From the NCBI GenBank assembly GCA_016179715.1, contig JACPCQ010000048.1, positions 2,606 through 26,605 of the forward strand: a stretch of 24,000 nucleotides of DNA. The letters run 5' to 3'. Of the stretch, positions 6,705-6,913 are shown in pieces. The position numbers and the translations under genes were made by a program. Source of the stretch: Parcubacteria group bacterium. Lineage in GTDB: Bacteria; Patescibacteriota; Minisyncoccia; JACPCQ01. Every line of letters starts with the position of its first letter. Within the stretch, counting starts at the first letter, position 1. The notes below the pieces were generated by a model, which was not told where the DNA came from, did no database searches, and saw only the letters and a list, made by a program, of their open reading frames with translations.

Positions 6705-6750
6705 TGTCTGTATTTCATCGGCTTTTTTACATTTACCCCCCCCACACACA

Positions 6751-6805
6751 CCAGAAAGCCCCGTCTATAAACCCCCACACCAAAGATTTTGGTGTGGGGG
6801 GTAAA
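6751..6805. repeat. Hairpin repeat unit 1 (CCAGAAAGCC box plus a 13-bp stem built on CCCCCACACC)
   Basis: CCCCCACACCAAA (6772-6784), loop GAT, TTTGGTGTGGGGG (6788-6800). A degenerate extra arm, TTTACCCCCCCCACACACACC, lies at 6732-6752. Confidence 0.9.
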
Positions 6806-6839
6806 GATGGGGATGAATGGAAAAAACGCGAAGCGTAAG

Positions 6840-6913
6840 CCAGAAAGCCACGGGTGTAAACCCCCACACCTATGGCATAGGTGTGGGGGTAAACCCGTGG
6901 TGTGGGGGTTTAC
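6840..6913. repeat. Hairpin repeat unit 2 plus an additional inverted arm
   Basis: CCCCCACACCTAT (6861-6873), loop GGC, ATAGGTGTGGGGG (6877-6889). GGTGTGGGGGTTTAC (6899-6913) is the exact reverse complement of GTAAACCCCCACACC (6856-6870). Confidence 0.9.

Follow-up and report, generated by a model that had tools for sequence, protein, structure and literature searches.

Hairpins in a Parcubacteria intergenic region as probable nested, gene-less copies of a dispersed family of mobile DNA

Results

The hairpin block upstream of ORF 7022

The window, meaning the whole 24,000-nucleotide stretch of DNA analysed here, contains a block of hairpin-forming repeats at positions 6732-6913. The block is located in the 506-bp intergenic region between the divergently oriented rpmG and ORF 7022, 110-290 bp upstream of the latter, an orphan with no family match. 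A first-pass annotation had described these repeats as a hairpin family, and the family proved to be real: all of the repeats, stems and alternative pairings described were located in the sequence. The two units, spaced 89 bp apart (6751-6800 and 6840-6889), were 80% identical. Stem 1 (6772-6784/6788-6800) was a perfect 13-bp stem with a 3-nt loop, and stem 2 (6860-6874/6876-6890) was also perfect, with 13-15 bp. The further arm at 6899-6914 was the exact reverse complement of 6855-6870 (16 nt), and the alternative pairing was provided by GTAAACCC (6889-6896), which is complementary to GGGTTTAC (6906-6913). Two elements of the description were retained in part. The supposed degenerate arm did pair (6732-6745 with 6792-6805, 93%), but it belongs to an enclosing element as the left outer arm and has grown through slippage of C and CA. 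The shared 5' box CCAGAAAGCC was present, but as a conserved internal module of one subfamily and not as a box private to the two units.

Chance was excluded as an origin of the block by its motif count and its fold energy. The core AAACCCCCACACC, with up to two mismatches, occurred five times in the window against 0.43 expected, a count reached by none of 100 shuffles, and region 6728-6918 folded as single-stranded DNA gave -56.5 kcal/mol compared with -27.5 +/- 3.5 kcal/mol for shuffles (z = -8.4). The block was not CRISPR-like, as had been stated, and matched no Rfam family: no gathering threshold was reached, and the only matches, to miRNA-like hairpins, scored 21-31 bits where 67-90 would be needed. 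A separate 34-bp near-perfect palindrome (TACCACATTTTGAACAT/ATGTTCAAGATGTGGTA) was observed at 6671-6704, with a third half-site at 6632-6648. Its sequence is unrelated to the hairpin family, and it had a terminator-like score in a simple scan.

Anatomy of the block

Positions 6732-6913 are one 115-nt element of two modules, in which each inner hairpin loop carries a nested mini-copy of 33 nt (Table 1). When the two minis were taken out (6772-6805 and 6861-6893, one TAAA being kept each time), the remaining 115 nt read in the order TTTA - long left arm - AGAAAGCC - CCGTCT/ATAA/AGATGG - GATGAATGGA...spacer - AGAAAGCC - ACGGGT/GTAA/ACCCGT - right arm - TTTA. This element aligned with a 98-nt arm-to-arm element of a genome from a different family (G176:C3:107894-107991) with a score of 101, compared with 33 +/- 7.5 for shuffles. 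In the one-module copies, GGGTGTAAACCCGTGG is uninterrupted, whereas the same loop in the window holds an insert between two TAAA. The copies in the window are therefore nested, since removal of the minis leaves an alignable element and the one-module copies keep the GTAAAC loop intact.

Table 1. Features of the hairpin block (positions in the window)
Feature	Position	Strand	Remarks
Left flank TTTA	6732..6735		4-bp direct repeat of the outer element; partner at 6909-6912
Left outer arm CCCCCCCCACACACACC	6736..6752		CCCCCACACC lengthened by slippage; pairs with 6899-6908 in the minimum-energy fold
Module 1: box AGAAAGCC and left half of inner stem 1 (CCCCGTCT, 6759-6766)	6753..6767	+	Right half AGATGGGG, 6805-6812
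Nested mini 1: TAAA + CCCCCACACC + AAAGATTTT + GGTGTGGGGG(G) + TAAA	6768..6805		Insertion point: TAAA in the loop of inner hairpin 1
Inner stem 1, right half (GATGGGG), followed by inter-module spacer ATGAATGGAAAAAACGCGAAGCGTAAG	6806..6839	+	10-mer GATGAATGGA and layout common to G176:C3:107894-107991
Module 2: box CCAGAAAGCC and left half of inner stem 2 (CCACGGGT, 6848-6855)	6840..6856	+	Right half ACCCGTGG, 6893-6900
Nested mini 2: TAAA + CCCCCACACC + TATGGCATA + GGTGTGGGGG + TAAA	6857..6893		Net gain of 33 nt; insertion point: TAAA in the GTAAAC loop of inner hairpin 2
Inner stem 2, right half (CCCGTGG); right outer arm GGTGTGGGGG (6899-6908) and TTTA(C) flank (6909-6913)	6894..6913		

The box-plus-hairpin arrangement of module 1 recurred in six further copies within this genome and, outside it, in four elements belonging to three genomes, and module 2 was identical to one-module copies of 48 nt on contigs C24, C52 and C63. 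Single-module copies carrying the box and hairpin were found in this genome, a Berkelbacteria genome and others, with inner stems that differ by paired changes. The two nested minis are of different sub-types. The AAAGATTTT mini is frequent elsewhere, being present in uvrA of genome G018 and in at least six loci of other genomes, and TATGGCATA closely resembles the common TATGCATA type. The TAAA in each inner hairpin loop was struck later by a different 33-nt mini-copy. Nesting accounts for several properties of the block: the 89-bp 'period' is the module spacing, the AAA:TTT and TAT:ATA pairs are private stem extensions of two different minis, and the mutually exclusive folds arise because the four left and right arms of the nested copies share the same 10 nt.

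Dispersal in this and other genomes

The genome from which the window was taken (G000; 602 kb in 75 contigs, 84.5% complete) was compared with genomes of which the closest share only its class (0.4-1.9 Mb). The 15-mer GTAAACCCCCACACC was present on 9 contigs of the 602-kb genome. Six further loci carried a 44-nt arm-to-arm unit, CCCCCACACC-AGAAAGCC-ACGGGT-GTAA-ACCCGT-GGTGTGGGGG, in either orientation, two carried a 136-nt version and one a 68-nt version. The dispersed loci all had the same 4-nt direct flanks (TAAA...TAAA or TTTA...TTTA), the arm-end spacing was 29-136 nt, and all of the clear copies in this genome were intergenic.

Among 401 sampled genomes of the class, the 14-mer TAAACCCCCACACC was detected in 49, distributed patchily over families, compared with 4 for the reversed control. 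The bare 10-mer gave 20-64 matches, equivalent to 10-32 elements per genome, in G176, G038, G340, G259 and G331, against 0-2 control matches. A search for the exact pattern TAAA-arm-N(1-31)-arm-TAAA, with one genome per GTDB species, yielded at least 117 stretches. The hosts among the matches listed were, by genome label, Parcubacteria, Saccharibacteria, Berkelbacteria, Doudnabacteria, Moranbacteria, Uhrbacteria and others, and those from other phyla among the matches listed were genomes labelled Elusimicrobia, Deltaproteobacteria, Nitrospinota and Ratteibacteria. One of the matches from other phyla was located in a gene for a prephenate dehydratase/aminotransferase fusion, which is unlikely to be found in a CPR genome. 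The family is dispersed in many Patescibacteria classes and a few other phyla. A phage vector was ruled out, as no exact match was obtained in 2.9 million viral contigs, and a DNA uptake sequence was ruled out by copy numbers in the tens rather than thousands together with the signatures of insertion.

Ends, target duplication and empty sites

Every copy was terminated by the inverted CCCCCACACC and GGTGTGGGGG, usually with a few copy-specific complementary bases added, a conservation which is partly an effect of the search because the exact patterns forced TAAA flanks and perfect arms. Identical 4-nt direct flanks were found in 171 of the 215 distinct arm pairs in all sequence examined. Eight of these 171 were not TAAA/TTTA, where about 0.2 would be expected by chance; the varied duplicated flanks included CCTA, TCAA, TGAA, CAAG, TTGA and CTTG. 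In six gene-bearing copies, a left-hand TTTA was combined with a right-hand TAAA or TGAA, which is no simple direct repeat.

Filled and empty sites were compared at loci other than that of the window, namely the uvrA loci and a region of G367 with its counterparts in G322 and G232. In uvrA of family f19, seven genomes read ...GLVLIN-D/E-xLFSEHFACP. The empty site has a single TAAA in G270, G322, G392 and G190, and in G018 and G118 the filled site reads GATAAA[CCCCCACACCAAAGATTTTGGTGTGGGGGTAAA]TGAC, in which a 29-nt palindrome is followed by another TAAA and the gene gains 11 codons. A 286-nt copy of G367 was located between two CCTA, and the tRNA gene of the congener G232 was uninterrupted with one CCTA. 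The same site in a second congener, G322, was uninterrupted but had a small local duplication of GGGCCTAC (GGGCCTACGGGCCTATAG). A mini found 90 bp further on in G367 was placed between two TCAA where both congeners have a single TCAA. The family therefore duplicates 4 bp of its target, mostly TAAA, on insertion.

The gene-bearing copy of G367 (L241, G367:C3, ~56507-56792, compared with L263 of G322 and L264 of G232) was in the 5' end of a tRNA gene with anticodon CAT. This tRNA gene may stay usable, as the terminal G-run of the element and the duplicated CCTA rebuild the tRNA 5' end GGGGCCTA.

Complementarity of the hairpin arms is kept through changes on both sides, as had been proposed from the two units of the window. 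Among 88 distinct interiors, the stem extended 3.7 bp beyond the fixed arms, compared with 0.60 for shuffles (maximum 0.93 in 1000). The third extension position held 32 A:T, 29 T:A, 9 C:G and 8 G:C pairs against 6 non-pairs. The simplest reading is that the constraint concerns a hairpin of DNA, or ends that must pair for the element to move, and not an RNA.

Copies inside genes

The net lengths of 122 minis had peaks at 33 (43 copies), 32 (18), 48 (11) and 39 nt (9), and 81 of the 122 were multiples of three. Reading frames that stay open over 40 codons or more to either side were found for 31 of these 81, in comparison with 2 of the 41 other minis. The coding hosts, all in other genomes, included UvrA (twice), PNPase, TsaD, UvrC, PheT, UvrD/PcrA (twice), a P-type ATPase, an M16 peptidase, iPGM and the specificity subunit of a type I restriction-modification system, the minis being in frame in uvrA, pnp, pheT, uvrC and uvrD. 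The peptide usually encoded is (I/V/L)(N/Y)PHT(K/N)xx(F/I)GVGV(N/Y/K). A 34-nt copy was also located inside a 23S rRNA gene (L034:1501-1540; G018:C1, ~309882), roughly at model position 440. The enrichment of multiples of three argues for read-through and against excision from the RNA; splicing of the insert was ruled out, since selection keeps the inserts in ORFs at multiples of three.

The UvrA loop after GKGLVLIN (family f19, L167-L185) contained no fewer than five further insertions of unrelated sequence in other genomes, such as STPPLPPLIKWGTKQITPLLDKEGVGGG in G211, and is therefore a hot spot for several palindromic families. Different families were also present in other host proteins, such as PPYKGGDKKNKLPSLRRRGLGEV in UvrC of G018. 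In the genome of the window, two 136-nt copies (C34:4770-4914 and C44:2948-3091) ended exactly at the start of the G-F-T-L-I-E motif of pilin-like genes. At this junction, the G-run of the element and TTTAC give the codons W-G-F-T, and an ATG within the C34 element gives the leader MRRKVWG|FTLIE. A clean in-frame insertion was ruled out for both genes, the net length of 140 nt not being a multiple of 3.

A GIY-YIG gene in the full-length copies

The longest copy (G176:C3, 314 nt) translated to an 85-aa GIY-YIG protein (PF01541, E 2.9e-17), for which the nearest solved structure was that of the UPF0213 protein BH0048 (PDB 1ZG2). The left arm was positioned 5-38 nt before the start codon in about 20 of the 31 closest homologues in the class sample. 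Both arms enclosed a GIY-YIG ORF of 83-91 aa in 16 of these, from 15 genomes, with perfect terminal repeats of 7-22 bp and a total length of 286-320 nt, and this ORF was the sole gene. The Y, Y-I-G, R, E and N motifs were kept in 15 of the 16 gene-bearing copies, and one of the 16 (L252) had a premature TAA. The 14-mer was present in 15 of 29 genomes with a close GIY-YIG homologue (E <= 5e-24) and in 34 of 372 others, a tally for which the threshold was chosen after the data had been seen and in which related genomes are not independent.

No copies longer than ~320 nt were found in G176, G038, G340, G259 and G331, and no PF01609 transposase in five element-rich genomes. Most of the apparent single arms had, within ~100 nt, a partner differing at one or two positions, and about eight were solo. 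An autonomous copy with a classical transposase was ruled out, as no arm pair in G176, G038, G340, G259 and G331 is more than ~314 nt apart and PF01609 is absent. The longer copies share their ends with the minis but encode a GIY-YIG nuclease, not a known transposase. As this small single-domain nuclease is the sole gene of the full-length copies of other genomes, it is the likely mobiliser of the family and would act in trans. Such an enzyme would probably recognise the extruded hairpin or the arm sequence and then make cuts staggered by 4 nt. No gene-carrying copy was found in the 84.5%-complete assembly of the window's genome, and the copies in the window may therefore be stranded relics.

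Alternatively, the GIY-YIG protein could be a passenger or a homing-type nuclease rather than the mobiliser. GIY-YIG nucleases are not known to carry out transposition; G340 has ~17 copies, yet no close GIY-YIG homologue, and the genome of the window has no GIY-YIG gene enclosed by these arms. Three other small GIY-YIG genes were observed in that genome (C73:1824-2051, C12:7750-7944 and C63:7857-8060). Two of them lie between inverted repeats of their own (AAATGCGACT/AGTCGCATTT and ACCCCGTGAAAT/ATTTCACGGGGT), the third is between two tRNA-like halves, and the C12 copy has an internal TGA. These paralogues with different inverted repeats suggest a wider group of elements, each with its own ends.

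Discussion

The block at 6732-6913 very probably consists of nested copies, without genes, that belong to a dispersed family of mobile DNA, and is not a device serving the neighbouring genes. Three other explanations of the hairpins were weighed against this reading. Movement as single-stranded DNA by a Y1 (HUH) tyrosine transposase encoded elsewhere, in the manner of REP/RAYT or of gene-less IS200/IS605 derivatives, seems improbable. The elements are hairpins, as this explanation would have it, and the uvrA insert is distributed against taxonomy (present in G018 and G118, absent from G270, a congener of G018), which could mean precise excision. Six PF01797 genes of ~215-256 aa were found in each of G018 and G340, but none in G000, G176 or G038 despite their 10-32 copies, and five Y1 loci of G018 and G340 (L161-L165) had no arm within 1.5 kb. 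Insertion of the IS200/IS605 type makes no target duplication, and duplicated flanks of different sequence (CCTA, TCAA, TGAA, CAAG) would not be expected from it. A Y1/RAYT link was rejected, as PF01797 occurred in only two of five genomes and was not adjacent to arms.

That the copies work as RNA, whether as terminators, as REP-like stabilisers of mRNA or as a structured ncRNA under selection on its fold, is also improbable. Strong stems kept through compensatory changes would suit such a role, as would those intergenic copies located at or just after stop codons, such as that on C73, whose flank supplies the TAA stop codon. The occurrence of both orientations, the excess of multiples of three inside ORFs, the target duplications and the empty sites are, however, properties of a DNA insertion, no Rfam family matched, and the stems were not followed by a T-run and were not called as terminators in the scan. 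Single copies may have acquired a secondary use.

The candidate roles put forward in the first-pass annotation (an operator/iteron array, a hairpin origin or an ncRNA linked to ORF 7022) were not upheld, the motif being present genome-wide in unrelated contexts and in many genomes, a distribution which that annotation had itself named as refuting them. A local regulatory array, to which the ORF 7022 protein would bind or which would govern the divergent promoters of rpmG and ORF 7022, is suggested by the divergent intergenic position and by the orphan status of that ORF but is scarcely credible: the same motif adjoins unrelated genes on 8 other contigs and is found inside coding genes and rRNA of other genomes, no promoter-like site overlaps the element, and ORF 7022 was ruled out as a partner protein, having no homologue in G176, G340, G038 or G018 (8-32 copies each) or among the metagenome contigs.

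As a dispersed mobile family, the elements were compared with known systems. There is a likeness in habit to the Rickettsia palindromic elements (RPEs), which are described as short palindromic selfish elements of reduced genomes, located between genes and, with unusual frequency, in frame in housekeeping genes (Ogata et al. 2000, as reviewed in PMC10969869). The present family is also palindromic and, in other genomes, is in frame inside protein genes and read as an extra peptide, the copy in the window being intergenic. RPEs are ~100-150 bp and restricted to Rickettsia (PMC10969869), whereas the family has members down to 29 nt plus a 4-bp duplication, with sharp 10-bp ends. It is also found in many Patescibacteria classes and some other phyla and has full-length copies with a GIY-YIG gene; the review text consulted mentions no mobilising gene for RPEs (PMC10969869). 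The comparison was made by description, host lineage and sizes differ, and membership is not claimed.

The family shares with MITEs (Correia/NEMIS, ERIC, RUP) the terminal inverted repeats, the target-site duplication, the small, non-coding and dispersed copies, nesting, and longer relatives with the same ends (PMC10969869). Known MITEs, however, derive from insertion sequences encoding DDE or other recognised transposases, and most are 100-400 bp (PMC10969869). The partner element of the present family encodes a GIY-YIG nuclease of ~85 aa alone, and its commonest members are 33 nt net.

With REPs and the REPIN-RAYT system there is a likeness in the short dispersed hairpins, single or in inverted clusters. 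The family differs from them by having no GTAG head (its flanks are TAAA/TTTA or other 4-mers), by making target duplications, by not being restricted to extragenic sites and by numbering tens rather than hundreds of copies. A RAYT (PF01797) gene lying between such repeats was not encountered: G000, G176 and G038 had no PF01797, and the five Y1 loci of G018 and G340 had no arm nearby. Gene-less elements derived from IS200/IS605 (PATE type) insert by a fixed tetra- or pentanucleotide without duplication, whereas the family duplicates varied flanks and is thus not of this type.

GIY-YIG homing endonucleases of the I-TevI type, encoded by free-standing or intron-borne genes, and the small UPF0213/YhbQ proteins (PDB 1ZG2) have the catalytic fold and motifs in common with the protein of the element. 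A homing enzyme has further domains for DNA binding and, through repair, goes back to a single cognate site. In contrast, the element protein is a bare catalytic domain of 83-91 aa between inverted repeats, and the element is found at many unrelated sites with a 4-bp duplication. To our knowledge, no mobiliser of the Rickettsia elements has been identified since their description in 2000. GIY-YIG genes are among those predicted to have been transferred from Patescibacteria to other bacteria (PMC12455944).

No description of the family was found in the literature on the motif, on MITEs or RPEs in Patescibacteria, or on GIY-YIG genes with inverted repeats. The mobile family is unusual and apparently undescribed, and the locus in the window is an ordinary consequence of it. 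We would go further only tentatively, and with somewhat less than even confidence: the family might represent an undescribed prokaryotic transposon, whose autonomous form of ~290 nt would have 10-22-bp inverted ends around one GIY-YIG gene of ~85 aa and would make 4-bp duplications. Its 29-nt hairpin derivatives would then be among the smallest mobile elements known, spread in Patescibacteria and other phyla and surviving in essential genes by adding exactly 11 codons.

The hairpins are uninformative about the regulation of ORF 7022 or rpmG, and a false lead is thereby removed. Ultra-small, streamlined genomes evidently tolerate and exchange selfish DNA. The family writes loops of 11 (or 16) codons into enzymes of repair, translation and RNA decay and is present in rRNA and tRNA genes, and gene calling, protein alignments and structure models of these lineages are affected. 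Because the ends consistently go together with a bare GIY-YIG domain, a candidate mobiliser of in-frame palindromic elements is now open to testing, and if it were confirmed, a class of nuclease would be added to the known enzymes of transposition.

Two further features of the window were recorded. A single 597-aa frame at 4006-5799 (minus strand) joins a protein-L-isoaspartate O-methyltransferase (PF01135) to YceG/MltG (PF02618), an unusual fusion if the frame is real. A tRNA-like gene at 8337-8412 (minus strand), adjoining tRNA-Met, scored 47 bits against Rfam tRNA and was assigned no anticodon by ARAGORN ('ag').
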